NCBI GenBank assembly: GCA_902789925.1
Contig: CADAPX010000001.1
Location: forward strand, 1 to 60,507
Origin: Oscillospiraceae bacterium
GTDB lineage: Bacteria; Bacillota; Clostridia; Oscillospirales; Ruminococcaceae
Length of the DNA stretch: 60,507 nucleotides
Direction of reading: 5' to 3'
Under the pieces are notes generated by a model. It was given only the letters and a program-made list of their open reading frames with translations, made no database searches and was not told where the DNA came from. Shown piece after piece: positions 16,267 through 54,550 of the stretch (within the stretch, counting starts at the first letter, position 1; the number at the start of each line of letters is the position of its first letter). The translations under genes were made by a program, and so were the position numbers.

Positions 16267-17379
16267 ATGAACATACTTTTTGCTGCTGGGGGAACAGCGG
16301 GGCATATTAATCCTGCCATTGCGATTGCGGACTATTTTAGGGATAACCTTAAAGGTGTTAACATATGTTTTGCGGGAACTCCGAAGGGAATGGAGTCGAC
16401 TTTGGTCCCCCAGGCAGGGTATGACTTTGTTTCAATGAGGGTTCGTGGATTTCAAAGAAAACCGTCTTTAAAGAATTTTTTCAGGAATGTGGATGCGCTT
16501 TATTTGCTTGCTCTGTCGCGATTTAGCGCAAAAAGCATCATACGTAAGTTTGGGCCGGATATTGTTATTGGAACGGGGGGATATGTTTCTGGGCCAATCC
16601 TTCTCGAAGCAAACAAAATGGGAATAAAAACTGCGATCCATGAGCAAAATGCCTATCCCGGAGTCACGAACAAAGTCCTTGCCAAAAGAGCAGACATCGT
16701 CTTTTTGGCGGTTGAGGAAGCTAAAAAAAGGCTGCCTGAATGTCGATCTGTCGTTGTTGGAAATCCTGTCAGGAAAAACGTTTTAGAAAAAAATAAATCC
16801 CAGGCAAGAAAAATTTTAAAAATGGATGATAATTTTTGCATATTGTCATTTGGAGGAAGTTTAGGCGCGGTTAAAGTCAATGAAATCGCAGCAGATTTGA
16901 TGGCGTGGCACAGTGCTTTCAGAAAAATAAACCACATCCACGCTATGGGACGGCTTGGGAGAGGATGTTTTCCGAAAATGCTTGAAGAGCGCGGGGTTGA
17001 TTTGAAAAAAAATCCAAGAATTGACGTTCGAGACTATATACACGATATGGATATATGTCTGGCGGCTGCAGATTTGGTTATTTGCAGGGCGGGCGCTTTG
17101 ACTCTTGCTGAACTTGAAGCAACAGCAAAGCCTTCAATTTTGATTCCTTCTCCAAACGTCGCTGAAAACCATCAGTATTATAATGCCATTGTTTTGCAAA
17201 ATAGGGGGGCTGCGGTTGTTGTTGAAGAAAAGTCATATGACAAAAATTTTTTAATACAAACTGTCAAATCCTTTTATGAAGACAAAAATAAATTGCGAGA
17301 GTATAGCAAAAATGCAGCTAAAATTGCCATATTCGACACCCCTAAAAGAGTTTTTGAGCATGTTATGAATTTGTTTTGA
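16267..17379 (+). CDS. murG: undecaprenyldiphospho-muramoylpentapeptide beta-N-acetylglucosaminyltransferase
   Basis: MNILFAAGGTAGHINPA N-terminus and a GT28 C-terminal domain (RAGALTLAELE). SD ggagg lies upstream of the ATG at 16267. Confidence 0.95.
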   Translation: MNILFAAGGTAGHINPAIAIADYFRDNLKGVNICFAGTPKGMESTLVPQAGYDFVSMRVRGFQRKPSLKNFFRNVDALYLLALSRFSAKSIIRKFGPDIVIGTGGYVSGPILLEANKMGIKTAIHEQNAYPGVTNKVLAKRADIVFLAVEEAKKRLPECRSVVVGNPVRKNVLEKNKSQARKILKMDDNFCILSFGGSLGAVKVNEIAADLMAWHSAFRKINHIHAMGRLGRGCFPKMLEERGVDLKKNPRIDVRDYIHDMDICLAAADLVICRAGALTLAELEATAKPSILIPSPNVAENHQYYNAIVLQNRGAAVVVEEKSYDKNFLIQTVKSFYEDKNKLREYSKNAAKIAIFDTPKRVFEHVMNLF

Positions 17380-17505
17380 TATTATGAAATATGGCTTTAA
17401 ATTGAAAATATGTGATTTAAGTTATATATTTTAAAAAGACTCACCCAAATTTTGCAATATGCATAAAATAAGCTGTATAGTTACTGTGCAGCGGGGTGGT
17501 TATGA

Positions 17506-18762
17506 ATGGAAAAAATAGTTGTAGATGGAGGAAGAAAGCTTGAGGGGGAGGCTCATGTTCAAGGGTCAAAAAACGCAAGTTTGCCGATAATTGGCGCAAC
17601 AATACTCACTGGCGGTGAAAATGTCCTACATATGTGCCCGATTTTGAAAGACACAATCACCGCGTGCGAAATTTTAAATTTGCTTGGATGCAAAACTGTT
17701 TGGCAGGGAAAAACCTTGATAATCGATTCTGGCGGAGTTTGTCGGAATGAAATTTCCAAATGCTTGATGAACAAAATGAGATCATCAATAATATTTTTGG
17801 GAGCAATATTGGCAAGATGCGGGGAAGCGACGGTCTATTTTCCGGGGGGATGTGATATAGGCAGCAGGCCAATCGATCTCCACATAGCGTCTTTAAAAAA
17901 GATGGGAGTTGAAATTTCTGAAAGCTGTGGAGAATTGCGGTGTAGGGTTTCGGGCTCAAGGATCCATGGCGCTGAGATATTTTTGTCATTTCCAAGCGTT
18001 GGAGCAACCGAAAACATTTTGCTGGCTGCGGCGACAGCTCGCGGAGAAACCGTGATAAATAATGCTGCAATTGAGCCTGAAATAAAGGATCTTTGCGACT
18101 ATTTAAATAAATGTGGCGCAAAAATATTTGGAGGCGGAACGCAGGTTATTCGAATTAAAGGGGTTGAAAAATTAACGCCATGCGAGTATAATATTATGCC
18201 AGACAGGATTGTTGCTGCAACGCTTCTTTGTGGAGTTGCTGTCACGGGGGGCGAAGTTTTGCTAAATTCGGTTCGTCCGAGTCATTTAAGCTCTGTTTTG
18301 CCCGTTTTAGCTGACATGGGATGTGTGGTGCGCGCATGTGAAAACACTATTTTTCTTAAGGCTAAAAATTTTTTGATTTCTTCTTCGCCGATTCGAACCA
18401 TGCCATATCCCGGCTTTCCAACCGATCTTCAACCGATAATGATGGCGCTTGCGTGTGTTTCCAGAGGGACAACAATCTTTGTTGAAACAATTTTTGAAAA
18501 TCGCTTCAGGCATGTTCCCGAGCTCAGGCGTTTGGGCGCTTCAATCAAAATTGAGGGAAGGGTTGCTGTTGTTGAAGGTGTTAAAATGCTTCGAGGAGCT
18601 TCTGTATATGCAACTGATTTGAGGGGAGGGGCTTCTTTGCTGGTTGCAGCTTTAGCGGCGGCTGGGAAAACTGAAATTTTTAAGGTTTGTTATATAGACA
18701 GAGGCTATGAAAAAATCGAACAGCAATTTTCGAAATTGGGTGCGAGTGTTTTTCGGGTATAG
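17506..18762 (+). CDS. murA: UDP-N-acetylglucosamine 1-carboxyvinyltransferase
   Basis: VQGSKNASLP and GGCDIGSRPIDLH (catalytic Cys loop), with an EPSP-synthase-like fold pattern. Confidence 0.95.
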   Translation: MEKIVVDGGRKLEGEAHVQGSKNASLPIIGATILTGGENVLHMCPILKDTITACEILNLLGCKTVWQGKTLIIDSGGVCRNEISKCLMNKMRSSIIFLGAILARCGEATVYFPGGCDIGSRPIDLHIASLKKMGVEISESCGELRCRVSGSRIHGAEIFLSFPSVGATENILLAAATARGETVINNAAIEPEIKDLCDYLNKCGAKIFGGGTQVIRIKGVEKLTPCEYNIMPDRIVAATLLCGVAVTGGEVLLNSVRPSHLSSVLPVLADMGCVVRACENTIFLKAKNFLISSSPIRTMPYPGFPTDLQPIMMALACVSRGTTIFVETIFENRFRHVPELRRLGASIKIEGRVAVVEGVKMLRGASVYATDLRGGASLLVAALAAAGKTEIFKVCYIDRGYEKIEQQFSKLGASVFRV

Positions 18763-18808
18763 GTTTAATTTTTAAATATATAACAGCTTAAATAAATAAG
18801 GGGAAGAG

Positions 18809-19618
18809 ATGAAAAAAACAAAGAGAGCCAAGATAAATTCCAGGGAGATTGCAAAGCTCAAAAGTTGTGGGATGAGGAAAAGGCGCAAAAAAAGAGCATA
18901 TGTTTTATATTATATTCTAATTTTTATTATTTTTTTGACAATAAGCATATCTTTATCACTAACTGTTTTTTTTAATATTGATGCGATTGAAATTAGACAT
19001 ACTGGAAAATATTCGACTGACGACATTTTGGCTGCCAGCGAAGTTAAAGTTGGAGACAATTTGTTGAGAGTGAATCTCGAAAAGACGGGGGAACGCATAT
19101 TAAATTCCTGTTTAGAGTTGGAAAAAGTTAACGTTAAGCGATCATTTCCGAATAAATTGATTATTGACTGCGAACCATGTGAATTAAAGTTTTGCTATCA
19201 AAAAAATGACGGCCGATATATATATATATCCAGGTATGGACGAATTGTTGAACCAGATCAGCCTTGCTTTAAAAGTGGCTTGATGATTTTGAAAATAGAT
19301 GGTGAAGATCCACAAAATTATCAAAAAGGCGAATATTTTCAAATATCGAAAGAAAATAAAACAAAGATTGACAATTTAATTAGTATTATTGATAATGTTG
19401 GACTTAAAGATGTCAGTGAAATTGAACTTTATGGAAATGGAGCGCATGTTACATATCAAAATCGTGTTATTATCGACATTTTTGACATGTCAAACGCCCA
19501 ATATATGATCAAGATGGCTGCTAATATATTAGACGAATATATAGGAATAAACGAAAATGGAAGAATATTTTTAGATTTTTCGACTCAATCTGTTCATTTT
19601 TTACCAGAAAAATGCTAA
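18809..19618 (+). CDS. ftsQ: cell division protein FtsQ/DivIB (POTRA domain)
   Basis: Basic N-terminus, one TM segment (VLYYILIFIIFLTISISLSLTVFF), then a POTRA-like segment (IEIRHTGKYSTDDILAASEVKVGDNLL). Located in the dcw cluster. Confidence 0.75.
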   Translation: MKKTKRAKINSREIAKLKSCGMRKRRKKRAYVLYYILIFIIFLTISISLSLTVFFNIDAIEIRHTGKYSTDDILAASEVKVGDNLLRVNLEKTGERILNSCLELEKVNVKRSFPNKLIIDCEPCELKFCYQKNDGRYIYISRYGRIVEPDQPCFKSGLMILKIDGEDPQNYQKGEYFQISKENKTKIDNLISIIDNVGLKDVSEIELYGNGAHVTYQNRVIIDIFDMSNAQYMIKMAANILDEYIGINENGRIFLDFSTQSVHFLPEKC

Positions 19619-19954
19619 GTAAAACTTGTGATTGAGGAAATTAAAAAAAAGACACACGGTTTAAACGGAATAATATATTACAAATCGTTGTTAGATTTTG
19701 TTTTGGCAAATTAATTTTAGAACATTGAATTTGTGAATCCAAAAAAAATTTAATTAAATTGACAAAAAACTGTTGAAATTGACTTTTTTGTGTGTTATCA
19801 TAAGTGTTGTGCGGTATGGTTATGTGAAATTTTGTTATTTTAGTTCGCTTAATTTGTGGCGATGAAATATATATTAACAAAATACTAGGTTTTATTCTAC
19901 CTAACTCTAAAATATGAGACATTGCAAAAGTTTGGCGTATAGGAGGAAGCGGTT

Positions 19955-21061
19955 TTGGGCAGCATAAAAATTATGCATGATGATGACTATGCAGTAAATA
20001 TTAAGGTTATTGGTGTTGGCGGCGGGGGCGGAAACGCTGTTAATCGAATGGTTGATTCCGACATGAAATATGTCGATTTTATCGCTATAAACACTGACAA
20101 TCAAATCCTTTTGTCTTCAAGGGCCAGTCACAAAGTTTCAATTGGAGCTAAAACAACAAAGGGTGATGGCGCTGGGGGAAATCCAGAGGTTGGAGAAAGC
20201 GCTGCGGAAGAAAGCAGGGAGGAAATAGCGGCGTCTTTAAAAGGGGCTCAGATGTTGTTTATAACAGCGGGAATGGGCGGAGGAACTGGAACTGGCGCGG
20301 CTCCTGTTGTTGCTCAAATTGCCCGTGAGATGGGGATTTTGACAATTGGAGTCGTGACTAAGCCTTTTAATTTTGAGGGAGCTTTAAGAATGCGTCAAGC
20401 GGAGCAGGGGATTGCGCGTCTTAGGGCGTGTGTTGACTCTTTAGTTGTTGTTCCAAACGAGCGTTTAAAAATGCTTGATGACCGAAAGATAACTTTTGCT
20501 AATGCGTTCCAGGCCGCGGATGATGTTTTAAAACAGGGAGTAAAAAGCATTTCCGAGCTTATCAACACTTCAGGTTTTATCAATTTGGACTTTGCGGATG
20601 TTAGCGCCATAATGAAAGACGCCGGATATGCTCATATGGGAGTTTCGAGCGCTCAAGGGAAGGACAAGGCGATAATTGCTGCGGAAAGCGCCATATCAAG
20701 CCCGCTTCTTGAAACTTCGATTGATGGAGCTAAAGGCCTGATAATCAACATAACGGCGCCGCCAACCATTGAATTTGATGAAATAGATGCTGCAACCAGT
20801 CACATCAGCCAAAGCGTTGACCCTGAAGCAAACATTATATTTGGCGTTGCTTTTGATGAAAATTTAGAGGACGAGCTGAAAATCACGGTTATTGCAACAG
20901 GATTTGACACTGAATTTAAAGAAAAAATCAGAAAGACGACGGTTTCTGATGTTAATCCTGAAGAGCCTGATGAGACGGAGTCTGCTGGAGGATTTGATGA
21001 CGTGATTGATATGGACGATGATTTCACCAAAATATTGGATATTTTTAAGAATAAAGGCTAG
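19955..21061 (+). CDS. ftsZ: cell division GTPase FtsZ
   Basis: GVGGGGGNAVNRM and GMGGGTGTGAAPVVA tubulin-signature motifs, with an acidic C-terminal tail ending DILDIFKNKG. TTG start 7 nt after aggagga. Confidence 0.97.
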   Translation: MGSIKIMHDDDYAVNIKVIGVGGGGGNAVNRMVDSDMKYVDFIAINTDNQILLSSRASHKVSIGAKTTKGDGAGGNPEVGESAAEESREEIAASLKGAQMLFITAGMGGGTGTGAAPVVAQIAREMGILTIGVVTKPFNFEGALRMRQAEQGIARLRACVDSLVVVPNERLKMLDDRKITFANAFQAADDVLKQGVKSISELINTSGFINLDFADVSAIMKDAGYAHMGVSSAQGKDKAIIAAESAISSPLLETSIDGAKGLIINITAPPTIEFDEIDAATSHISQSVDPEANIIFGVAFDENLEDELKITVIATGFDTEFKEKIRKTTVSDVNPEEPDETESAGGFDDVIDMDDDFTKILDIFKNKG

Positions 21062-31139: not shown

Positions 31140-31281
31140 CTAAAAACTAAAACAGGACAAATTTTATAAAAAACTTGATTTTATTATTTATAGATATATA
31201 ATAATAAGTAGGAGTTATTTTTGTAGTGTTGATTTTTTGGTTAGTGAGATTATATTCTGATTAGACGGAGGAGTGTTGAAA

Positions 31282-34017
31282 ATGAGTTTGGTTGATAAAG
31301 TTTTTGGGTCATACAGTAAAAAAGAAATAAAAAGAATAAAGCCAACTTTGAAAAAAATTTTGGGCATGGAAGAAAAATATAAAAAATTTTCTGAATCTGA
31401 GCTTAAAGGCCAGACCAAATTGTTTAAAAAGCGTTTGGCCGATGGGGAGTCGCTTGATGACATATTACCTGAAGTTTTTGCTGTTTGTCGCGAGGCAGCA
31501 TCCAGAGTTTTGAGCATGCGCCATTTTGAGGTTCAACTTATGGCTGGAATCATTTTGCATCAGGGGCGCATTGCTGAAATGAAGACGGGCCAAGGAAAAA
31601 CATTGGTTGCGACTTTGCCGGTGTATCTTAATGCGTTAACTGGAAAAGGGGCTCATGTAATAACTGTTAATGACTATTTGGCTAAGCGTGACTCCGACCT
31701 CATGGGCAAGGTATATAGATATTTGGGCCTGAGCGTTGGCGTTATACTCAATGGAATGGACAACGACGAGCGCCGCAAAGCATATTCTTGCGACGTGACA
31801 TATGCAACAAATAATGAGGTCGGATTTGACTATCTTCGCGACAATATGTGTATATATAAAGAACAAAAAGTTCAAAGGCCTTTCAATTTTTGCATCGTCG
31901 ACGAGGTTGACTCAGTTTTGATTGACGAGGCCAGGACGCCGCTTATTATTTCAGGCCCGGGTGAAAAATCAACGGATATGTATGTTCATGCTGACAATTT
32001 TGTTAAAACTTTGAAAATGTATAAAGTCAGGGAGCTTGATGATAAAGAAGAACACGACGATGTTGACGGCGACTATATCGTTGATGAAAAGGGAAAAACT
32101 GCGACTTTGAATCCTTCCGGAGTTAAAAAAGCTGAAGAATATTTTAACGTTAAAAACTTGATGGATGCTGAAAATATCACACTTTTACACCATATTAATC
32201 AAGCAATTAAAGCGCATGGCGTTATGCAAAAAGACACAGATTATGTCGTTAAAGACGGCGAGGTTTTGATTGTTGACGAATTCACAGGAAGAATAATGTT
32301 TGGGCGCAGGTATAACGAAGGGCTCCACCAAGCTCTCGAAGCCAAAGAGGGCGTTGACATCGCAAGCGAATCCAAAACTCTTGCCAGCATAACCTTCCAG
32401 AATTTGTTTAGGATATATAAAAAGCTGTCTGGAATGACGGGAACTGCCCTGACTGAGGAGGGAGAATTCAGGGAAATATATAAACTGGACGTTGTTGAAA
32501 TTCCGCCAAACAAGCCTGTCATTCGAAAAGACCATGACTATGTTATTTATAGGACAGAGCAAGCAAAATTTCGCGCTGTCATCGACCAAATAGTTGAATC
32601 CCATAAAAAAGGACAACCTGTTTTGGTTGGAACGGTTTCCATAGACAAATCTGAGCGTCTCAGCGCTCTTTTAAAAGAAAAGGGCATTGAGCACACTGTC
32701 CTTAACGCTAAACACCACGAACGAGAGGCTCATATCATTGCTCAGGCGGGCAAAAAAGGCGCAGTCACAATAGCAACTAATATGGCTGGGCGCGGAACCG
32801 ACATCATTCTTGGCGGTAATGCGGAATATATGGCAAAAGAAGAGATGAGAAAAAGGGGATACTATGAAGACCTTATAAACGAAGCAACCGCATATGGAGA
32901 CACTGATGATCGAGAAATTTTGGAAGCCAGGGAAACTTTTAAAAGCCTAAACTCAGAATATAAAAAGGTAATTTCTGAAAAAGCAAAAGAGGTTAAAGCG
33001 GCTGGAGGCTTGTTTATTATTGGAACTGAGCGCCATGAATCCCGAAGAATAGACAATCAGCTGCGGGGGCGTTCAGGTCGTCAAGGAGACCCTGGAGAAA
33101 GTCGGTTCTATCTGTCTTTAGAAGACAATCTGATGAGGCTGTATGGCGGGGCGAGAATTGACAAAATGATGAAATTTTTAAAAGTTGATGAAGATATGCC
33201 GATAAAAAGCAGGATGCTGACTAATGTTATAGATAATGCTCAGGCTAAGGTTGAGGCGCAAAATTTTGCGATACGTAAAAGCGTTTTAAAATTTGACGAC
33301 GTCATGAACTCCCAGCGTGAGATAATATATAAAGAACGTGGACAAGTTCTTGAAGGAAAAGATATGAGAAACAGCACTGTCCACATGATGACTGAAGCCA
33401 TTGCGGAGGTTGTTGACATATATATTCCAGACCATGTTTCCTATGAACATTGGAACCTTGAAGGCTTGCGGGACTATTTTAGTTATATTTTGGACGAAAA
33501 TGACTTAAAGTATAGCAAAGGCGATCTTGCGGGCGTTAAGAAGGAAGAATTGATTGAGGCGATTCGCAAAAAGGCCATGAGCATATATGAACAAAAGGAG
33601 AAGATGGTTGGCCAGGAGCGCATGCGTGAGCTGGAAAGGGTTGTTATTTTGCGGACGGTTGATTCTAAATGGACCAACCACATCGACAACATGGAGGAAC
33701 TTCGCCGGGGAATCTATTTGCGGTCGTATGCTCAAAAAGACCCTGTCATTGAATATCGAATCGAAGGCTTTGCCATGTTTGATGCGATGGTTTCAAGCAT
33801 TAAAGAAGAAGTCACAAGGCTCATCTTGACGATTCACATCAGAACTGAGCAGGAAATCAAAAGAGAGGAAGTCAATAAAATTCCGGTTCCTGTCAAATAT
33901 AAAGAGAGCGCGGCGGGTCAGGAAAGGCGTCCGATTCGAAATCTTCACAACGTTGGACGAAACGATCCTTGTCCATGTGGCAGCGGTAAAAAATATAAGC
34001 ATTGCTGTGGTAAATAA
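31282..34017 (+). CDS. secA: preprotein translocase ATPase SecA
   Basis: [14 protein letters not shown] Walker [20 protein letters not shown], and the C-terminal zinc motif [14 protein letters not shown]. The ATG at 31282 is 9 nt after ggagga. Confidence 0.97.
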
Positions 34018-34147: not shown

Positions 34148-35467
34148 ATGAATAAATTCTATGGGAAAATCGAATTATTAGGTAAAGAATATAGTTATGT
34201 TGTTATAGGATATGAGATGATAATAATTGACTCTAAAGAAGATATATTAAAAACGCATAAAATTGCTCAAATAACCAACAGATGGCTCAAAACCAAAATA
34301 AATGAAGGAAAAAGATTAATAGTTAAATTATCCTATAAACACGCGGGAGAAAATGCGCTTATTATGAATATTATCGCTTTTTTTAGCATTTTTGATATGT
34401 CAAAATTTTTTATTGAGTTTAAACAATATGAAATTCCAAAAAGAAAAGATGAGATCCACAAAATAACATATGTCAGCGACGTTTTGGACTATTTTTTCAG
34501 GCCGAAGGGATATAAGGATTTTGTTTCAAATTTGATTGAATCATTCCACGATGATGTGAAACTGAAAAAAGGAAATTTCAAACATTATTCGTTTAATTAT
34601 AATAATAAGAATTTTGTCATGTATTTTGGAATTTTGAATGAATATAAAAGGGATAATAGATTTGTTTTTGACATACATAGTCTGTTAATTATTGAATGTG
34701 ACGAAAATATTGAACTTGACGAGGTGTATAAAATTTCTGTGTATGTTAAAACTTTTTTGGCGCTTGTCTCAAACAAACGAAAAGTCTACTTTGATGAGAT
34801 AAAAATAAACCGACCCTATGGAGGAAATGAATATAAACCCGGCTATTTTTATTTAAATCAAGGCAAAAAAGAAAACATTAATTACTGTCATACATTAGAA
34901 TATAATGATGTTGAAGACAATATTCAAAAAATTATGGATAAAATAATTGAAAATGATGTTTTATTTATTCTTTTATTTCAGTATGACACCAACTATATTA
35001 AAACTATTGATATAATAAATATATGCGCCGCATTTGAATGTCAATTTAAAGAAACATATTCTGAATTTAAGTGTCAATATCGAAAGATTTATCCTGAATT
35101 TAAATGTCGATTTTTTAAAACTTGCGCCAGATTAAACAAAAATAAAGTCTCATTGCGGCAAAAAATAGAATATGCTCTGGCAGATTTTGAAAAATTTTAT
35201 CAGCAAACCTCAACCCAGCATGTTAAGATAGAATATGATTTTAAGGAGGATTATAAAGAAATGCCCAGCAGGATTGTTTACGCAAGGAACATGCTGGCCC
35301 ACGGGGACAAAAAGACTGATAATAAAAATTTTCAAATAAACGATGATGTTTTAACAGACACCATTTTATTGCGTGCCATTATATATTTTATGATTTTTAA
35401 ATCTATTGACATGAATCCAACTAATATTATGAAATGCATTAGAAAATTTACTAGATTTCATTTCTGA
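34148..35467 (+). CDS. HEPN-motif protein with a large uncharacterised N-terminal domain (ApeA-like abortive-infection candidate)
   Basis: 439-aa ORF with a good SD (aaggaga, 7 nt, ATG). C-terminal YARNMLAHGD fits the HEPN R-N-x3-H active-site motif. I recognise no housekeeping motif. The gene is visibly AT-richer than secA and corC. Confidence 0.55.
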   Translation: MNKFYGKIELLGKEYSYVVIGYEMIIIDSKEDILKTHKIAQITNRWLKTKINEGKRLIVKLSYKHAGENALIMNIIAFFSIFDMSKFFIEFKQYEIPKRKDEIHKITYVSDVLDYFFRPKGYKDFVSNLIESFHDDVKLKKGNFKHYSFNYNNKNFVMYFGILNEYKRDNRFVFDIHSLLIIECDENIELDEVYKISVYVKTFLALVSNKRKVYFDEIKINRPYGGNEYKPGYFYLNQGKKENINYCHTLEYNDVEDNIQKIMDKIIENDVLFILLFQYDTNYIKTIDIINICAAFECQFKETYSEFKCQYRKIYPEFKCRFFKTCARLNKNKVSLRQKIEYALADFEKFYQQTSTQHVKIEYDFKEDYKEMPSRIVYARNMLAHGDKKTDNKNFQINDDVLTDTILLRAIIYFMIFKSIDMNPTNIMKCIRKFTRFHF

Positions 35468-37493: not shown

Positions 37494-38204
37494 TTAATTT
37501 TGCCATGAATTTTTAGTTTTATTGATAAAATCCTGACGAGATTTAAGATATTTCAATTTATTTATCATATCCGTGAAGAAGCGCGGGCCAAAAAACAGCA
37601 AAAAGTTTGCAACTGCCATAGTTGCAGCAACTGCGTTAGACCATCTTAACGCAAAAAGCGAAGATATGATGCTAAAAAGCAAAATTAAAGAGCTAAAATA
37701 TCCAAGCCATTTAACTTTAACTGGAATTATGAAAAATATCATCACCGAGAGGTCAGGATATAGCGCTGCAAACGCAAGAAACAGCGACAAATTCAAAAAA
37801 GTTGGGTTTGAATGGCCAACCAGCAAGCCGCCTAAAATGGCAAAAATCAGGCCTGTTGTGTAGTATACTGTTAGCTTAAACTCGCCCCAAACCGATTCCA
37901 GCCCAGTTCCAATAAAATAGAGAAAATATAGGCTAAGCAGAATAAATATAATATTGCTGCCTAGAGGCGAAAATACTGAACTTGGAGGAATAAATATGAA
38001 TGTTACAAGGCGCCATATTTGGCCGCCAAAGATTAAATCGCGGTTGAAATAAATCAGAGAGGACAGGGTGAAATTGTTGTTTTGGGCCATTGAAACCAGG
38101 TCAAAAAAGTAAACAAGGCCTGATATTATAGCGATCCACAGCGTTAAATTTGGGATTTTAAACCAAGGAATTTTTCGTTCCAATTTATAGATCCACATGA
38201 GCAA
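37494..38204 (-). CDS. rhomboid-like polytopic membrane protein (catalytic dyad not evident)
   Basis: Six or seven hydrophobic segments. GQIWRLVTFIFIP resembles the rhomboid WRL motif, but I see no clear GxSG serine motif. Confidence 0.4.
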   Translation of the reverse strand: MLMWIYKLERKIPWFKIPNLTLWIAIISGLVYFFDLVSMAQNNNFTLSSLIYFNRDLIFGGQIWRLVTFIFIPPSSVFSPLGSNIIFILLSLYFLYFIGTGLESVWGEFKLTVYYTTGLIFAILGGLLVGHSNPTFLNLSLFLAFAALYPDLSVMIFFIIPVKVKWLGYFSSLILLFSIISSLFALRWSNAVAATMAVANFLLFFGPRFFTDMINKLKYLKSRQDFINKTKNSWQN

Positions 38205-38803: not shown

Positions 38804-38832
38804 TTGACTCGCTATTTAAAGCATTATATAAT
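38804..38832 (+). promoter_or_regulatory. consensus promoter of transglutaminase-like paralog 1
   Basis: ttgact (38804-38809), 17-nt spacer, tataat (38827-38832). Confidence 0.65.
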
Positions 38833-38910
38833 AAATTTGGGAGGTTTTTAATGTTAACTTGAGATTTACATAAATTAACCATGATTTTTTTAAGGAAGAG
38901 GGGGTTTTTT

Positions 38911-41013
38911 ATGAACAAAATTTTAAACGATTTTATTGAAAAACTTAGAACCAACCAAAAGCTCCAATATGAATTCAAAAAATGCAAAACCCTTAAACAA
39001 AGCTATGACAGGTTTATGAAAGGCAAATGCAGCTATGAGGAATATGAGGATTTTTTTGAGGATTTAATTAAAAGGAAGGCCCAGCTCTCAGATCAAGACC
39101 TTGAGCAGGTTTGCGGCGGAATTTCCTTAAAGAAAATGCTCGCTCCAATAACTATTGTTACTATGCTGACTGGGTCTGGCGCGATTTTGGCGAATAATGT
39201 TATGTCTTCTGGACAAAATTCCATTTTTTCTTCATTTAGCCAAAGCGTCGAAAAAAACAATGTCGAAACCATTTGCGATGGGCAAATTCAATTTTCGGCT
39301 GGTAATGATTCAATCGTTTTAAAAGGGGTTGACGAGCAAAATCCAGCCAAACTTGACATATCAAACGACCTCTCAAGCAAATTAAAATTTCACAAAAACA
39401 AAACATTAAAAATTGGCGCAGGAATTGAATCCATAAAACTTGAGGACCAGGACATCGACATCTCATGCGCTTTGGATTTAAAATCTGTCGACCTGGGCGA
39501 AAACAATTCGAAATATAAAATAGTTGACTCTAGCCTCTGGGCGATTGATGAAGACGGAAATTTATCAAAAAATCTGGGATTTATAAATAAATCAATAATA
39601 TATGACTTTTGCTTTGACAGGATTGATGAACTTCCAAAACTTGAAGGAAATCAAGAGTTTGAAAATCTGGGGCAGGAAGAAGATTTTAGGGCGTTTCTGG
39701 CTCTTCCAAACCGCGATCAGCTCAAAGAAAAGAGAGAATATGTGATATATAAACCAAATCAGAAAAAAACTGATAAAGATGATTCGTTAACAAATAAAAC
39801 AACAATAAACGAAAAGAAGGTTTATGATGATATACAAAATGTTGTTTGGGAACTTACGGAAAAGGTTGAAAAGCGAACTCCTCCAGACGGAATGAGTGAA
39901 AATGATATACAATCCGGAATAAAAGAAAATAAATATAGCAAAAATTACAAAATGAATAAATATTGGCGAATTGCAAAGGCTATATATCGCTGGGTTGCAA
40001 AAAATATTTCATATGACGACGACAGCCTTGTTGAATCCTGTCGAAAGCCCCAGGATCCGCTTTTTGTTTTTCAAAGCAAAACTGGGGTATGCGCCGGATT
40101 TTCGAATTTGACGAATTTGATGATGCGCATGGCGGGAATTCCAAGCCTTAAAGTTTCAACGCTTAAAAACCAAAACTCCGACAAAACAGTTCATGGATAC
40201 ACCGCTATATATTTGCCAAGCAACCAAAATTCAAATGACGCTTTGGGCGACTCTGTTTTTAAAAGCAAAGAAGCTGGATGGGCGCTGCTTGACTCAACTT
40301 GGGGGGCAACTGGCGATTCAACAAAAAAAGAAGTCGAAAGTAAATCAAACATCAACAAAAAAGATAGGCTAAAAGAAAATTTTCCTGGGTTTTACAGTCA
40401 AAATTCAAGCCTCAAAGATGACAACAAAAAAATCCTAGACTTTAAGTCGCATAAAATATCTCATTTTAGCTCTGGTTTGAGCAATGTTCAAGATAGTCCA
40501 TTATATAATAAAGATTTCACAAATTTTTCAAGAGGAAATTTGGAGTTCACCTTGGGAGGAAGCGTTCAAGAGCCGACGATATGCATAAAAGCTAGAAAGG
40601 GCCAGCAAATTAAAAACCTCAAAATTTCAGACATTCCTCAAAGTCTTTTAAAATATGGCTATTCAATCGAAATCACAAACGGCATTGAATCTTTGACAAT
40701 TGACAAAGATGATGATATTAAATTGAAAATTTCTGATTCATGTCAACTAAAAACTGCTAACGCCAGCCCCGAAAATAAAAAATATTTTGCAGATGAGATT
40801 GCTATTTGGGAAAAAAATTCCAACAATGAACCCGAAAAGCTTGTTAAAGTTTTCAGGCAAAATGGAGTTTGCGGAAAAAATCAAAACCAAGTCAAATATT
40901 CAATTGAAGAAGACAAAATTTCCCTGGAAGGAAAAAATATTAACACTCAAAAGTTGCCGCATTCATTAAAATTGATCAGCCAAAAATTCAATAAGCCCTT
41001 CCAAACAAACTAA
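38911..41013 (+). CDS. transglutaminase-like cysteine protease-fold surface protein with N-terminal Nif11-like double-glycine leader domain and LRR (BspA-like) segments
   Basis: The first 70 aa (MNKILNDFIEKLRTNQKLQYEF...LSDQDLEQVCGG) have a Nif11-type leader pattern ending in GG, followed by a hydrophobic segment. Transglutaminase-core Cys/His/Asp are in KTGVCAGFSNL, VHGYTAIYL and ALLDSTWG. The ATG at 38911 follows gaagaggggg. Confidence 0.75.
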   Translation: MNKILNDFIEKLRTNQKLQYEFKKCKTLKQSYDRFMKGKCSYEEYEDFFEDLIKRKAQLSDQDLEQVCGGISLKKMLAPITIVTMLTGSGAILANNVMSSGQNSIFSSFSQSVEKNNVETICDGQIQFSAGNDSIVLKGVDEQNPAKLDISNDLSSKLKFHKNKTLKIGAGIESIKLEDQDIDISCALDLKSVDLGENNSKYKIVDSSLWAIDEDGNLSKNLGFINKSIIYDFCFDRIDELPKLEGNQEFENLGQEEDFRAFLALPNRDQLKEKREYVIYKPNQKKTDKDDSLTNKTTINEKKVYDDIQNVVWELTEKVEKRTPPDGMSENDIQSGIKENKYSKNYKMNKYWRIAKAIYRWVAKNISYDDDSLVESCRKPQDPLFVFQSKTGVCAGFSNLTNLMMRMAGIPSLKVSTLKNQNSDKTVHGYTAIYLPSNQNSNDALGDSVFKSKEAGWALLDSTWGATGDSTKKEVESKSNINKKDRLKENFPGFYSQNSSLKDDNKKILDFKSHKISHFSSGLSNVQDSPLYNKDFTNFSRGNLEFTLGGSVQEPTICIKARKGQQIKNLKISDIPQSLLKYGYSIEITNGIESLTIDKDDDIKLKISDSCQLKTANASPENKKYFADEIAIWEKNSNNEPEKLVKVFRQNGVCGKNQNQVKYSIEEDKISLEGKNINTQKLPHSLKLISQKFNKPFQTN

Positions 41014-49952: not shown

Positions 49953-51848
49953 ATGGACAATTTTAGAATAAAAACCATAAAAAAATGTATAGAATGGCTT
50001 GCTGTGGTTGCTTTGATTCTTGGATCATTTAATGACTTTGGCCTGAAAGCTTTTGCAAATTTAGAGCAGGAAGAAAATTTTTGCATGGATAAAATGAACA
50101 ATTTGCCAATAGACGAGGATTTTTTAACTGAAGCGACAAAATTGCCAAATGTTGATGAGTTAGATGAATCCAGGATTGAACCGATTGTGCACATGAACGA
50201 TACAGTCGAGCAAGTCGTTCTAAACGAAAAAAGTTGTTATGATAAAATATTTCAAGAAGTTGAAAAATTAAAGCAAACAGCGAAAAATTCTCAATCCTAT
50301 TTAAAAAAAGAAGATGCGTGTTTACCAGAAAAAATGCGCCTAGCCAATGAAATATATCGTTGGGTTGCAACAAATATTCGAGCTGATCATGAATCTTTTG
50401 AATCTGTCAAAAATGATGAACAAGTTTATGTCAAGCCCCAGGATGAATATTTTGTTTATGATCAACGGCTTGGCTTTTGTGAGGGATATGCACGGCTTGT
50501 GAACTTGATGATGCGAATGGCCGATATACCCTGCATCTATGTTGCGTCGATTAACGGGCCAGCTGAAAATTATGGCCATGCATTCAACGCTGTGTATATT
50601 GAAGACACTTGCGCAGATCGAAAGGGATGGACTTTGCTGGACGCGGCGAATGCTTGGCCCGGAGGCTTTGACAGATACAAATCACTCACTAAATTTTTGT
50701 TTGGGGAAGCTTTTTTTAATCTAGACTTTTTTAATATTATAATGCCGAAAAATGATGATTATGTTAAAAATATCTATTATTTACTGGAAATTTCTTGTGA
50801 ACAATGTCATAATCCATCTTCAGAATTTATTGAGGAAAAAAACAAAAAAATTGAAAATGTTTTGAAAATTTTAAATAGTGACGAAAAATATGAAAATTGT
50901 TCACATTTTAAAGAAATTAAATTTTTCAATCATTCTGGATATTTATATTTTAATTATAAAACCGACGTCACCATGATAAAAGCCAAAGAGATTCGAAATG
51001 AAGAAGAGGAAGGTTTTTTAAAAAACGATTTTAGTTGCTTCGAAACTAAATTAAGAGAATATAATGAAAATTTCATGCTAAATTCAGATATTATATATAA
51101 CCTTTTATTATTAACTGGGTTGGAAAAACTCGATTTAAACCAGGAAAATATGGCAGAATTGAAAAATATCAAATTTGGATTTGAAGAATCTTTAAGGGAT
51201 GGACATGAATTTTTATATGCATATTGTGGGAAAAAACCAAATGCTGTGGCTAATAATATAAACGAAACTGATCAAAAAAATCAAAATAGTTATTATTTTA
51301 AAGAAAAGTTTGAAGAATTTTTCCCTGCGTTTTATAATTCCAAACAATCTTTTAAAGATGCTAATATGAGAATTATTAAAAAAAGTTTTCATAAAATATC
51401 CACTTTTGAAATTGATATAGGGAATATAAACACGCCAATTTTGCTTGGAGAATCCCACGAAGGGAATGCTCGGTTGGACCTCAATTGTCAGGTTGACATG
51501 GACATATCGTGCTTTTCGTCTTTGTCGCCAGATGAGCAAAAAAAGCAGATAGACGAGATCAAACAGACGCTTAAAATGTTAAATGTTTTTGATGATCGCA
51601 TAGAGTGTGGTGGTTTATTTCAAATAAATAATAAATATGGAATAACAGTGAATATTCCCGGATGTATTGAAAAATTAAAGCTTCACGGCAATATATCTAT
51701 CGATATAGGAGCTTCTGATGAATTGATTGAAATAGACACGACTGATTCGGAAATATATGACTTTGAGGATGGAATTTTATATGAAAAATTTGATGGCAAA
51801 CGGGGAAAGGAGATCGCAAGAACAAAGAAAAATCCGGTGAAAATTTAA
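49953..51848 (+). CDS. secreted transglutaminase-like cysteine protease-fold protein, paralog 2
   Basis: Signal peptide ending KAFA. The triad is in LGFCEGYARL, YGHAFNAVYI and TLLDAANAW. It shares the NFCMDKMNNLP, LPEKMRLANEIYRWVA, FFPAFY and SHEGNA blocks with paralog 3. Confidence 0.8.
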   Translation: MDNFRIKTIKKCIEWLAVVALILGSFNDFGLKAFANLEQEENFCMDKMNNLPIDEDFLTEATKLPNVDELDESRIEPIVHMNDTVEQVVLNEKSCYDKIFQEVEKLKQTAKNSQSYLKKEDACLPEKMRLANEIYRWVATNIRADHESFESVKNDEQVYVKPQDEYFVYDQRLGFCEGYARLVNLMMRMADIPCIYVASINGPAENYGHAFNAVYIEDTCADRKGWTLLDAANAWPGGFDRYKSLTKFLFGEAFFNLDFFNIIMPKNDDYVKNIYYLLEISCEQCHNPSSEFIEEKNKKIENVLKILNSDEKYENCSHFKEIKFFNHSGYLYFNYKTDVTMIKAKEIRNEEEEGFLKNDFSCFETKLREYNENFMLNSDIIYNLLLLTGLEKLDLNQENMAELKNIKFGFEESLRDGHEFLYAYCGKKPNAVANNINETDQKNQNSYYFKEKFEEFFPAFYNSKQSFKDANMRIIKKSFHKISTFEIDIGNINTPILLGESHEGNARLDLNCQVDMDISCFSSLSPDEQKKQIDEIKQTLKMLNVFDDRIECGGLFQINNKYGITVNIPGCIEKLKLHGNISIDIGASDELIEIDTTDSEIYDFEDGILYEKFDGKRGKEIARTKKNPVKI

Positions 51849-52038: not shown

Positions 52039-52123
52039 ATAAATGATGATACTTTTAAATAGTATTATCTAAGCGAAATTTTATATTGTTCATCAAATAT
52101 TAACTGCAAAGGATGTGATTATC

Positions 52124-54550
52124 ATGAGTAATTCGATGACAAAATTAAAAAAAGGCGTTTTAAAAAAATCTCTAGCCTTATTTTTGGCGGTTTTAATGTG
52201 CATAACTTGCTTAACCGTTTCGGTTTTTGCCGGTGCGGAGGGGGAAGAAATGTTTTGCAATGACAAAATGAACAGTTTGCCAACTAGAAGCAGAGCGTTT
52301 TTTTCAGAAACCACCAAATTGCCCGACGTGAATCGGCTGAATCCAACGCGCCTTGAAACTGTTGTCCACTCTAACGGTTCAAGAGAATATATTTTCGTGG
52401 ATGAGCAGGCTTGCTACAAAAAAATGGTTGAAGTTGTCAAAAATCTGCAACAAAGCGTTAGAAACGGCAATGATTTAAAAGCTTGGGGGGAGGATTATTA
52501 TAAATATGTTGGTTTACCGGAAAAAATGCGTTTGGCAGATGCTATTTACCGATGGGTTGCCGAAAATATACTTTATGACTTTGAAACATATGATATTGTC
52601 GACAAAGACGCAAACGGCAGCCAGGCAACATGGAAACCACAAGATGCATATTTTGTTTTTAAAACGAAAAAAGGCGTTTGTGAGGGATACGCAAGGCTTG
52701 CAAATTTAATGATGCGTATCGCCGGCATACCGTGTATGTATGTTTCCAGTATTTGTGGAAAAGATGATTACTGCGCCCACGCATTTAATGCTGTTTATAT
52801 TAAGGATGATGTGAATGGAAGGCAAGGCTGGACGCTTGTTGACCCAACATGGGCTTCTCCAAACGGATCAGATGGAAACAATCCAAACGCCAGGAAAACC
52901 ATTTCTGGAGTGACAAAATTTGCAAAAGGTTGCTTTAATGTTTTTAAAAGAAATGATAATTATTTAAAAGAACTTTATAATAATTTCGCAATTTATGCTA
53001 ATCAAATGGCGGATATGGGCTGTGATAGAATGGCTGTTCAACTAAACAGAGTTTCGTCAACAATTTTGAATAATTTAAATCAACAATACCCAGACGGTTC
53101 ACACTTTCAAAAAATCCAGTTCTATAACGCAAATGGATCTTTACGCGTTCAATATCAAGCGAATATAAAAGCTCAGGATATGAAAAAATATGACGCTAAT
53201 ATGTTAAAATCTTGCGCGGATGAATTGATGGGAAAATCCGAAAAGAGTTTTTGTGTGTGGCCAACAGGACAAGCAAATTTAGTTTTAAGGGACGTAAATT
53301 TTCATGGACTCTGGTTCACAAATTCTTGTTTTGAAAGAATAAACAACCCTGACCCTTTTCAAAAAGATAAAGCTAAACAGTATCTGGCAACGCTTAAAAT
53401 TATATGTCATAATATTGTTCAGAAACATTTAAAAAATATTGCAAATGCTTGGACACCTCAAAATGCTTTAAAACAATTGAATGATGAAATAAATTCAAGA
53501 CTAAATGCTTTAAACAATGCGTATGGTGACATCACCGGATTTAAACATTTAACCTTCAATTTAAAACGTGAAACAAACCCGGTTTATGGGCAAAACAGGC
53601 GTTATAATGTTTTAACGTTAAAATGTGAAACTGCGTTAGATGAAAGCGAAATCAGGAATCGATTGGATGAAAGTTTTTCAAATGATACTGAGTTTTTGAA
53701 AGAGCAAAAAGCAAAGGAAGATCAAAAGTTCTATAAAGAATTTTTCCCAGCATTCTATCAACCAGATAAATCAATTGAGCATGCTAATAAAAAGGTTATT
53801 AAACATCTATATCACAAACTGTTTGCATTTGAATTTTCACACGAATTTTGGGATCAAAAAATAAACTTTCCGCGCCTTAAAGAAACTTCTCATGAAGGAA
53901 ATGCTCAAATAGAGCCCGCTGCTCCTAAAGATGAGAATAAACCATATTATGTTCCGCAAGAACTTAAAAAATATGGTTTGGAAGTTGTCATTCCGTGTAA
54001 TGTTAAAATTCTGATCCTCACGGGAGATGAGCGTGTGAATTTTGATGATGCGTTGGGCTTGCAGGAAGTTGGCGGAGTATCCACATACTATATTTTAAAG
54101 GATGGCAATGTGTATGACCAAAACGGAACGCTGATTTTTGGAAGAGTCAAAGATGATAATTATGGAGGTTACTATAACTATAATAATTATACATATGACA
54201 ATAATACTTACAATTATACATATGATAATAATACTTACAATTATACAAATGACAATAACAACAACAATTATACATATGATAATAACACCTATAATAATTA
54301 TAATACATATGACAGCAATACATATAGCTGTGGCATTAAAGCCAAAAAGAAAAAACAACAAAAGCGCTATATTTGCGCTAAAAGCAAAAATTCACAAAAA
54401 CAAAGTGTTTGCGCTAAAAGCAAAAATTCACAAAAACAAAGTGTCTGCGCTAAAAGCAAAAATTTACAAAAACAAAGTGTCTGCGCTAAAAGCAAAAATT
54501 CACAAAAAGCTAAAAGTAAAAATTCACAAAAACAAAGTGTTTGCAGATAA
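52124..54550 (+). CDS. secreted transglutaminase-like cysteine protease-fold protein, paralog 3, with Asn/Tyr-rich and Cys/Lys-rich C-terminal repeats
   Basis: Signal peptide ending SVFA. The triad is in KGVCEGYARL, CAHAFNAVYI and TLVDPTWAS. The C-terminus is YNYNNYTYDNNTYNYTYDNNTYNY... followed by (CAKSKNSQKQSV)n. Confidence 0.8.
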   Translation: MSNSMTKLKKGVLKKSLALFLAVLMCITCLTVSVFAGAEGEEMFCNDKMNSLPTRSRAFFSETTKLPDVNRLNPTRLETVVHSNGSREYIFVDEQACYKKMVEVVKNLQQSVRNGNDLKAWGEDYYKYVGLPEKMRLADAIYRWVAENILYDFETYDIVDKDANGSQATWKPQDAYFVFKTKKGVCEGYARLANLMMRIAGIPCMYVSSICGKDDYCAHAFNAVYIKDDVNGRQGWTLVDPTWASPNGSDGNNPNARKTISGVTKFAKGCFNVFKRNDNYLKELYNNFAIYANQMADMGCDRMAVQLNRVSSTILNNLNQQYPDGSHFQKIQFYNANGSLRVQYQANIKAQDMKKYDANMLKSCADELMGKSEKSFCVWPTGQANLVLRDVNFHGLWFTNSCFERINNPDPFQKDKAKQYLATLKIICHNIVQKHLKNIANAWTPQNALKQLNDEINSRLNALNNAYGDITGFKHLTFNLKRETNPVYGQNRRYNVLTLKCETALDESEIRNRLDESFSNDTEFLKEQKAKEDQKFYKEFFPAFYQPDKSIEHANKKVIKHLYHKLFAFEFSHEFWDQKINFPRLKETSHEGNAQIEPAAPKDENKPYYVPQELKKYGLEVVIPCNVKILILTGDERVNFDDALGLQEVGGVSTYYILKDGNVYDQNGTLIFGRVKDDNYGGYYNYNNYTYDNNTYNYTYDNNTYNYTNDNNNNNYTYDNNTYNNYNTYDSNTYSCGIKAKKKKQQKRYICAKSKNSQKQSVCAKSKNSQKQSVCAKSKNLQKQSVCAKSKNSQKAKSKNSQKQSVCR
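54169..54326 (+). repeat. imperfect 27-nt coding repeats (YNYTYDNNT units)
   Basis: The acaattatacatatgataataatactt unit is reiterated with variation. All other frames are open because of the low complexity. Confidence 0.8.
54374..54547 (+). repeat. 36-nt coding tandem repeat, about 4.8 copies (CAKSKNSQKQSV)
   Basis: tgcgctaaaagcaaaaattcacaaaaacaaagtgt(t/c) starts at 54374, 54410, 54446 and 54482. The last unit is rearranged. Confidence 0.9.

Follow-up and report, generated by a model that had tools for sequence, protein, structure and literature searches.

A Nif11-type double-glycine leader joined to a signal-peptide-like segment on large bacterial proteins: a candidate bipartite sorting signal

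The DNA analyzed here is a stretch of 60,507 nt (the window) from contig CADAPX010000001.1 of an Oscillospiraceae bacterium (assembly GCA_902789925.1), and the gene in question encodes a transglutaminase-like protein that begins with a Nif11-type double-glycine (GG) leader. Double-glycine leaders and the ATP-binding cassette (ABC) transporters that contain a peptidase, or PCATs, whose C39 domains recognize them are understood as a system for small peptides, namely bacteriocins, pheromones and peptides made by the ribosome and modified after translation (RiPPs). We propose, with a probability of about 0.4, that the first 94 residues of this protein form a bipartite sorting and export signal, in which Sec would move the cargo and a C39 peptidase encoded elsewhere would clip the leader. 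Nif11 leaders, PCAT recognition, Sec signals and transglutaminase-like enzymes are all known parts. What appears to be new is the combination of a putative Nif11-type GG leader and a signal-peptide-like segment on proteins of 250-3000 aa, in hundreds of protein clusters and unlinked to a transporter.

The leader consists of residues 1-70 (MNKILNDFIEKLRTNQKLQYEFKKCKTLKQSYDRFMKGKCSYEEYEDFFEDLIKRKAQLSDQDLEQVCGG), and its last residues (QLSDQDLEQVCGG) include the GG at nt 39115-39120, the position given in the preliminary description. Against the protein, the curated model TIGR03798 (leader_Nif11) gave 21.8 bits (E 1.6e-4) over profile positions 6-68 of 68, not reaching its cut-off of 32.3, and Pfam Nif11 (PF07862) gave 11.6 bits, below its threshold of 23.8. 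When five leaders of the window's subfamily were compared by hhalign with seven leaders of small classical precursors, all of which match TIGR03798 (the first at 41.9 bits), the probability was 96.1% and the E-value 3.6e-9; the alignment runs end to end, residues 3-70 against 4-84, with GG aligned on GG. A hidden Markov model (HMM) was also built from 149 related N-termini, excluding the window's subfamily, and tested among 1338 open reading frames (ORFs). It detected the window N-terminus (leader plus hydrophobic part) with 32.2 bits (E 6e-9) and the leader alone with 15.6 bits (E 1e-3), the next unrelated ORF having an E-value of about 0.5-1.

The same 70-aa leader is found in the whole-protein homologues P0002 and P0003, and alignable leaders of 81-86 aa occur in P0004, P0008, P0009, P0011, P0013, P0014, P0016 and P0017. 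Residues M1, F8, E21, L28, G69 and G70 are invariant in the alignment of homologue leaders, and F8, G69 and G70 are invariant across 36 diverse family leaders. The GG does not change even in homologues whose leaders share just 16-30% identity. The central IxPxAKKxGFDF helix of Nif11 leaders has been lost in the window subfamily; the AlphaFold2 (AF2) model places residues 1-67 in five helices with a predicted local distance difference test score (pLDDT) of 76-88. The preliminary description of this DNA had read the first ~70 residues as Nif11-like, a reading that the absence of any match to Nif11-leader models, or a GG lying in a variable tail, was to refute. The profiles do match and the GG is invariant among homologues, so neither objection applies. 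Judged from its sequence, the leader is probably a divergent, short Nif11-type relative, weakly supported when tested directly and convincingly when tested indirectly. The window protein would then be a divergent relative that works like a leader of the Nif11-like leader RiPP precursors (N11P), and it should not be filed as a RiPP precursor itself.

The end of the leader carries the residues expected of a C39-peptidase substrate. In the window protein these follow the pattern L59-x4-L64-x2-V67-C-G69-G70, with L59 at position -12, L64 at -7, V67 at -4 and G69-G70 at -2 and -1 relative to the predicted cut. In a logo of 69 non-redundant large proteins the frequencies were 0.87 for L-12, 0.81 for S/T-11, 0.99 for L-7, 0.61 for N-5, 1.0 for V/I-4, 0.9 for S/A-3 and 1.0 for GG, with acidic residues at -10 to -8; the anchoring regular expression had partly pre-selected positions -7, -4, -2 and -1, and had not pre-selected -12, -11, -10 to -8 or -5. 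PCAT1 and LahT bind their leaders through these positions, L-7 and L-12 forming a hydrophobic knot and -4 conferring specificity. The protease LahT150 cuts Nif11-type leaders, accepts any P' sequence and requires no more of the leader than its last 13 residues; it comes from a Lachnospiraceae strain from AgResearch, termed human commensal microbiota in the paper (PMC6959990, PMC6363468). Hydrophobic residues at -12, -7 and -4 and GG at -2/-1, by which leaders of PCAT substrates are defined, are all present in the window leader. Because the C39 contact residues have been kept though the rest of the leader shrank, we infer cleavage after G70 by a C39 domain.

Directly after the GG lies the hydrophobic stretch ISLKKMLAPITIVTMLTGSGAILA, at the place and with the sequence given in the preliminary description, and it seems to be more than hydrophobic. 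It opens with an n-region, ISLKK (K74-K75), continues with a 19-residue uncharged h-region, MLAPITIVTMLTGSGAILA, and ends with small residues (SGA/ILA). In the family logo the residues after GG are S/N at +2, K/R at +4 (0.66) and Gly at +9/+10 and +19/+20. Positions +6 to +23 are almost uncharged (D/E 0.003, K/R 0.007), and an Ala/Ser-rich stretch comes next. Sites of the type [AVS]-x-A-(not P) fall at +17 to +34 in 71% of 82 non-redundant sequences and in 12-20% in later windows, with the -1 residue of the site most often at +27 to +30. In sequence, aa 71-94 are suggestive of a Sec signal peptide of the Gram-positive type, laid out n-h-c and with just the Met missing. The AF2 model has pLDDT below 50 over residues 66-116, and at the position of the Ser/Asn-rich linker that follows the segment other family members carry longer acidic or P/T/S/G-rich low-complexity linkers.

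This arrangement is not peculiar to the window. An exhaustive HMMER search with a nine-sequence N-terminal profile against 1.84 billion cluster representatives returned 632 protein clusters at E<=1e-3 and 86 at E<=1e-10, and for nearly every one of the top 150 the profile aligned to a long protein over its first 110 or so residues. Where the motif was present and the segment strongly hydrophobic, protein length had a median of 622 aa and a maximum of 3031 aa. The top 150 include 111 proteins of 250 aa or more, and every one of these carries the leader, the GG and the hydrophobic segment; the top-150 matches that do not have the segment are all small, and most are Cys-rich classical RiPP-type precursors. 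The presence of these small precursors in the top 150 means that the search could have picked up large proteins lacking the segment as well, but it picked up none. The longer leaders of sister proteins pass the curated cut-offs, with up to 48.1 bits for TIGR03798 and up to 39.8 for Pfam Nif11. The family cargos include BspA-type leucine-rich repeat (LRR_5) arrays and many regions without a Pfam match. Family genes often stand in tandem, three each in L005, L007 and L009 (10001-13288, 14130-16391 and 16824-19967 in the last) and two in L006, which indicates paralogous expansion. The related loci have a G+C content of 29-42%, several come from rumen or gut assemblies, and the carriers are presumably anaerobic Firmicutes.

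Other searches with the leader returned little. Word-indexed homologue searches with the leader alignments A1 and A2 gave fragments alone (8 and 3 matches), and tblastn of two typical leaders against PLSDB plasmids gave no match. Scanning metagenomes with the back-translated motif [DE]-D-L/F-L/F-N-V-x-G-G gave 120 loci. These were unrelated or chance matches throughout, a gut gene with CEDFFNVSGG dominating among them, and none matched the leader HMM.

In terms of genetic linkage, about 278 kb were covered, made up of the window, the eleven loci L001-L010 and L135, which hold large members, and the short locus L011. A regular-expression scan of the window and L001-L010 (256 kb) found no ABC signature in any ORF, and no C39 or ABC gene was among the Pfam calls for L001, L002, L005-L010 and L135. 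No C39-ABC transporter turned up in the window or at a distance of up to 10 kb from the eleven related loci. The statement in the preliminary description that the window holds no C39-ABC transporter agrees with our search, in which no ABC, C39, LanM, cyclodehydratase or radical-SAM maturase gene was found near the gene in the 60.5-kb window. P0090, a small classical member, served as positive control: it lies beside a radical-SAM gene and 9 kb from a gene with Peptidase_C39, ABC_membrane and ABC_tran domains. At that locus (L012:8696-10414 and 17112-20414) the Cys-rich P0090 (137 aa) follows right after the radical-SAM enzyme, and a second ABC exporter accompanies the PCAT; by its gene content the cluster, which is uncharacterised, looks like a ranthipeptide or sactipeptide cluster using the same leader family. 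At L009:9608-9841, just upstream of the three large family genes, there is a gene for a 77-aa product with a short classical GG leader (...QLSDKSLESVNGG) followed by a soluble, Cys-containing cargo of 56 aa. The sequence of this small gene suggests that its genome has a GG-processing system or transporter somewhere.

Two candidates for a processing enzyme were considered and rejected. The stand-alone Peptidase_C39_2 protein in L001 has a Sec signal peptide of its own and would therefore be extracellular. The second was a rhomboid or rhombosortase, an idea raised by the likeness of GG plus a transmembrane segment to GlyGly-CTERM and by the neighbouring gene at 37494-38204 (-), which is divergent from the leader-enzyme gene and encodes a 236-aa polytopic membrane protein with a rhomboid-like WRLVT-type motif. 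This neighbour had no Pfam match at E<=1e-3, and its adjacency is missing in the syntenic locus L001.

The proposed mechanism has two parts. The first (aa 1-70) would be a helical Nif11-type leader whose last 12 residues serve as the motif for C39 domains of PCAT-type ABC proteins, and the second (aa 71-94) would in effect be a Sec signal peptide short of its initiator Met. The hydrophobic segment would engage SecA/SecYEG, insert with its N-terminus inside and its C-terminus outside, and take the cargo of about 600 residues across the membrane. The GG would then end about five residues from the cytoplasmic face of the membrane, where the peptidase domains of PCATs dock, and a membrane-embedded C39 domain, encoded elsewhere in the genome, would remove the leader there. 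The short anchor left behind might retain the enzyme at the surface, be removed by signal peptidase I or be extracted by the PCAT. Cleavage at the GG, the route of translocation and the final location are thus all inferred.

Four observations argue that Sec, rather than the cavity of a PCAT, moves the bulk of the protein. The n-h-c-like segment seems obligatory on large cargos; paralogs with a Sec-type N-terminus exist; no transporter is linked at the loci examined; and the PCAT1 cavity is too small for 630-3000 residues. That cavity measures about 15,000 A^3 and holds one 66-residue cargo (PMC6959990). The preliminary description had offered a choice between export through a PCAT and a cytoplasmic N-terminal module of a type II membrane protein. 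Both are still the main live hypotheses beside our own, but the third route, Sec together with C39 clipping, becomes the most economical if the segment behind the GG is, as it seems, a full n-h-c module that includes an AxA-type site.

Several points weigh against the bipartite signal. The window leader lies under the curated TIGR03798 threshold and has no central Nif11 helix. The search profile contained the GG and the hydrophobic segment, so the universality of this pair among large members is partly a matter of ascertainment. Part of the enrichment of AxA sites stems from that stretch being richer in Ala (0.16 vs 0.06), and the long low-complexity linkers of many members fit a retained anchor as well as a cleaved signal. 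We know of no example in which a C39 peptidase trims a Sec substrate, and such trimming has no obvious benefit. Finally, the C39 gene elsewhere is a postulate, as the transporter scan spans about 278 kb at the examined loci.

Of the other explanations, that of an uncleaved type II membrane protein survives best, although we consider it doubtful. Here the Nif11-like domain would be a cytoplasmic module with a structural, regulatory or partner-binding role, comparable to the cytoplasmic domains of single-pass anti-sigma factors and sensors, the hydrophobic segment would be a permanent signal-anchor and the GG a hinge. The folded five-helix N-terminal domain that AF2 predicts, followed by a flexible stretch and a short helix, is what such a protein may look like, the long disordered linkers of many members resemble wall-spanning stalks, and no peptidase or transporter was found nearby. 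Stand-alone Nif11 domains also occur as cytoplasmic proteins (Pfam PF07862; Haft 2010, PMC2887384). However, a hinge does not need L-12, L-7, V/I-4 and GG at 87-100% amid leaders that are about 20% identical, and these are the C39 contact positions. The same leader on small proteins sits in RiPP-type loci with a PCAT, and loss of the central helix with the C-terminal motif left intact fits a cleavage signal better than a folded domain.

Export of the whole cargo by a PCAT seems to us unlikely. An unlinked transporter would bind the leader, cut after G70 and thread the unfolded 630-residue protein outward, and the hydrophobic N-terminus of the cargo would partition from the transporter into the membrane and serve as an anchor. 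The conserved C39 recognition motif and the homologous leader speak for this route, and the GG plus Gly-rich part scores on the class IIb bacteriocin model TIGR03949, one sister protein being above the cut-off. Gram-negative ABC exporters with C39-like domains (HlyB-type, type I) move very large unfolded proteins and are a precedent for cargo of this size. We know of no Gram-positive PCAT that moves proteins of hundreds to thousands of residues. PCATs set no requirement on cargo sequence, but the PCAT whose structure has been characterised operates by alternating access, and its cavity has room for a cargo of about 66 residues (PMC6959990). Export by an adjacent PCAT has been proposed for MAM of Faecalibacterium, a GG-leader envelope protein (PMC12184118). 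Whole-cargo export leaves unexplained why every large member appears to have an n-h-c module and an AxA-type site and the small ones do not, and no transporter is linked at twelve loci.

It is quite improbable that the N-terminus is an extended signal peptide that involves no C39 peptidase, in which the Nif11-like part would be a long n-region routing or delaying Sec and signal peptidase I would remove 95-100 residues. The n-h-c geometry and the peak of AxA sites would be accounted for, and long signals of comparable kind exist: GspB-type signal peptides show glycine-dependent routing, of which the Gly-rich h-region here is reminiscent, KxYKxGKxW signals of about 90 residues belong to accessory-Sec substrates, and extended signal peptide regions (ESPR) are found in autotransporters. 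The C39-type motif and the homology to cleavable RiPP leaders would remain unexplained, however. The housekeeping SecA at 31273-34017, of the standard type with a SEC-C motif, is the sole SecA in the window, and no accessory Sec genes were seen in any locus examined.

An artefact, by which a leader gene was fused to the next gene through a sequencing or assembly error or a wrong start, is suggested by the resemblance of the first 94-100 residues to a complete small bacteriocin precursor, but it is effectively refuted, as the ORF is equally continuous in independent assemblies and in homologues that are 38-52% identical, hundreds of other large proteins have this arrangement, and the hydrophobic segment has no alternative start codon just ahead of it. 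A class III signal of the pilin type, which a Gly directly before a hydrophobic stretch recalls, is hardly more credible: pilin signals combine a short basic leader with a Gly at -1, a hydrophobic helix and Glu at +5, while the leader here is 70 aa long and acidic, its +4/+5 residues are Lys-Lys, and the family has K/R at +4 in 66%.

The bipartite signal can be compared with several known systems. Nif11 leaders are a described family (Haft 2010, PMC2887384). The N11P precursors (ProcA, and LahA1-9 of Lachnospiraceae C6A11) have a homologous helical leader that ends in LSxxxLxxVxGG and carry the same determinants at -12, -7, -4 and GG. Their hypervariable core has about 20-60 residues, whereas the window protein is a 630-residue multidomain enzyme with a Sec-like segment directly after the GG. 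Unlike N11P loci, the window gene has no maturase or PCAT nearby, and its 70-aa leader is below the cut-off and has lost the central helix. CtA, the substrate of PCAT1 in Acetivibrio thermocellus, and MAM have a GG leader recognised by a C39 domain, as is proposed here. Their cargos are of 66 and about 114 residues and their leaders of 21-24 aa, while cargos of the present family are 5-45 times larger, the leader is of the Nif11 type, a hydrophobic segment intervenes and the PCAT is unlinked. MAM has 135 aa with a 21-aa leader, in most Faecalibacterium species it has the PCAT gene as its neighbour, and export by the PCAT has been proposed from bioinformatic, modelling and proteomic evidence, not demonstrated (PMC12184118). 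MAM, a structural envelope protein and not a bacteriocin, is the closest precedent for such a protein with a GG leader in a related organism (Clostridium cluster IV).

The class IIb bacteriocins of the lactobin A/cerein 7B type (TIGR03949) show, like the family, a GG followed by a Gly-rich (GxxxG-like) hydrophobic helix, but they are complete peptides of 30-50 residues, whereas here the segment is just the start of a large protein. TIGR03949 does not match the window protein itself, and the likeness may be compositional. It does match the GG and Gly-rich part of the sister proteins P0121, P0083 and P0017 (N-terminal 125 aa), P0121 with 26.7 bits, over the cut-off of 21.5. By analogy, KxYKxGKxW/GspB and ESPR signals place about 90-110 residues before the mature protein, as an extension plus an n-h-c core with a Gly-rich h-region. 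Those extensions have no sequence relationship to the window leader, carry no GG/C39 motif and are not homologues of RiPP leaders. The PF01841 enzymes 3isr, TglA (9crn) and LapG have the fold and Cys-His-Asp triad in common with the cargo core, at a sequence identity of 12-18%; the cargo core differs in being flanked by LRR-like beta domains. The combined architecture has no curated model, NCBIfam (June 2026) and Pfam giving only the generic Nif11, TIGR03798 and TIGR03949. Full-text literature searches brought up no account of it, and we found it undescribed in Haft 2010, Bobeica 2019, Kieuvongngam 2020, and the literature on MAM, the Hungate1000 bacteriocins, the Ayu secretome and the polymorphic toxins of the Aravind group.

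The large enzyme-like cargo reported in the preliminary description is present, although its length is 630 aa and not 640 aa. Its core matches PF01841 (Transglut_core) with 50 bits (E 4e-13), over the cut-off of 23 bits, and PF04473 with 24.1 bits. A triad of Cys394 (40090-40092), His428 (40192-40194) and Asp461 (40291-40293) is invariant in 18 homologues. Foldseek matched the cargo, with probabilities of 0.98-1.0, to the putative cysteine protease 3isr, to S. pyogenes TglA (9crn), to TG2/TG3 and to LapG. The repeat GIESIKLEDQDIDIS..LKSVDL in the N-terminal module resembles the BspA-type LRR_5 units of homologues and other family cargos, and the beta domain at the C-terminus can be aligned to the C-terminal parts in both paralogs of the window; mean pLDDT of the whole-protein model is 78.8. 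The cargo is, by prediction, a transglutaminase-fold Cys-His-Asp enzyme flanked by beta-repeat domains.

Paralogs 2 and 3 in the window begin, as previously described, with ordinary Sec-type N-termini, both of the n-h-c type, and share 29-32% identity over the core. An ordinary Sec-type N-terminus before the same core is also found in the homologues P0010, P0019, P0020, P0022 and P0023. Because paralogs and homologues carry the core behind such an N-terminus, the cargo would be extracytoplasmic and compatible with Sec. The 3' end of paralog 3 (54174-54532) contains two tandem-repeat arrays within the coding sequence. The first has a 27-nt period repeated 4.2 times and encodes the Asn/Tyr/Thr/Asp-rich YNYTYDNNT, and the second has a 36-nt period repeated 3.8 times (96% identical), encodes CAKSKNSQKQSV and so makes up a basic, Cys-containing C-terminal tail.

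The longest reading of the gene is an ORF at 38881-41013 (+), and the preferred product is 700 aa from the ATG at 38911. The sequence GGGGGTTTTT(T)ATGAA is kept in two loci from rumen metagenome-assembled genomes (MAGs), L003 (from Ruminococcaceae bacterium RUG12519, with a protein 96% identical) and L004 (from RUG14392); further upstream the sequences diverge, and the ATG at 38881 is not kept. The equivalent Met is used as the start by P0002, P0003 and P0049. We placed the start at 38911 because a ribosome-binding site (RBS) precedes it, the motif is kept in the two MAGs and the upstream ATG is not. TTGACT...TATAAT is also found upstream of the gene at L004. As the next gene is preceded by strong promoter-like sites of its own, the leader-enzyme gene looks monocistronic.

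Between the promoter-like site and the start codon (38838-38910) the window has about 58 bp more than L004. This insert holds a repeated RBS-like GGGAGG, a 3-codon mini-ORF, ATG TTA ACT TGA (38852-38863), and the in-frame ATG at 38881; another strain reads through the TGA of the mini-ORF, giving the longer gene call P0029. At L004:6320-7024, at the contig end, the RUG14392 orthologue has its first ~30 leader residues (MNKILNNFIEEIKSDQKLQYEFKKCKTLKQ) joined in frame to the last ~200 residues, and has no GG, hydrophobic segment or transglutaminase core. It is either a deletion allele or pseudogene or else an assembly artefact.

Table 1. Positions of the leader-enzyme gene, its parts and its two paralogs in the window.
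Feature	Coordinates	Strand	Basis
Promoter-like TTGACT-17-TATAAT	38804..38832	+	Consensus scan, 11/12 matches; consensus match alone
Putative RBS AAGGAAGAGGGGG (38892-38904) and start ATG (38911-38913)	38892..38913	+	Sequence read, relatives
Nif11-type double-glycine leader, short variant, aa 1-70	38911..39120	+	Profile and profile-profile matches, AF2
C39 recognition signature LSDQDLEQVCGG	39085..39120	+	Predicted scissile bond after nt 39120
Signal-peptide-like segment ISLKKMLAPITIVTMLTGSGAILA, aa 71-94	39121..39192	+	Sequence read, family logo
Ser/Asn-rich low-confidence linker, aa 95-118	39193..39264	+	AF2
N-terminal beta-repeat (LRR-like) module, aa 119-224	39265..39582	+	AF2 strands, pLDDT ~80-87
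Transglutaminase-like (papain-fold) core	39952..40293	+	Pfam match aa 348-438
C-terminal beta-repeat domain, aa 516-700, and stop codon	40456..41013	+	AF2 strands, pLDDT ~80-95
Paralog 2, transglutaminase-like, N-terminus MDNFRIKTIKKCIEWLAVVALILGSFNDFGLKAFA	49953..51848	+	BLASTP 32% over core; PF01841
Paralog 3, transglutaminase-like, N-terminus ...KKSLALFLAVLMCITCLTVSVFAGAEG	52115..54550	+	BLASTP 29% over core; PF01841

The window has a G+C content of 37% and a housekeeping content that includes the dcw cell-division cluster and SecA. Between secA and a CorC/CBS gene lies a gene at 34148-35467 (+) whose 439-aa product has an Apea-like HEPN domain at its C-terminus (PF18739, 31.9 bits) and from this domain is a possible defence or toxin-type RNase among housekeeping genes.

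A wider and more tentative proposal is that the leader and the Gly-rich hydrophobic segment mark an undescribed, widely used sorting pathway of rumen and gut Clostridia in which a PCAT-type machine handles large surface proteins. Its cargos could include LRR adhesins, transglutaminase-like enzymes and proteins of up to 3000 aa. Such a pathway could export whole proteins, as a Gram-positive analogue of type I secretion, or the PCAT could clip the leader and then extract the bacteriocin-sized signal-anchor left by Sec. In the latter case the release of the protein from the membrane would be controlled, perhaps with a hydrophobic peptide as a by-product. For annotation, mining for RiPPs and bacteriocins may mislabel large members, some of which exceed the cut-offs of TIGR03798 or TIGR03949, and predictors that expect a signal at residue 1 may overlook such proteins. 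If the leader is processed, then either the substrate range of PCATs is far wider than thought or C39 cleavage cooperates with Sec in an undescribed way. Either way, one more sorting signal would be known for proteins at the surface of rumen and gut bacteria, among them enzymes and LRR proteins of the adhesin-like kind.

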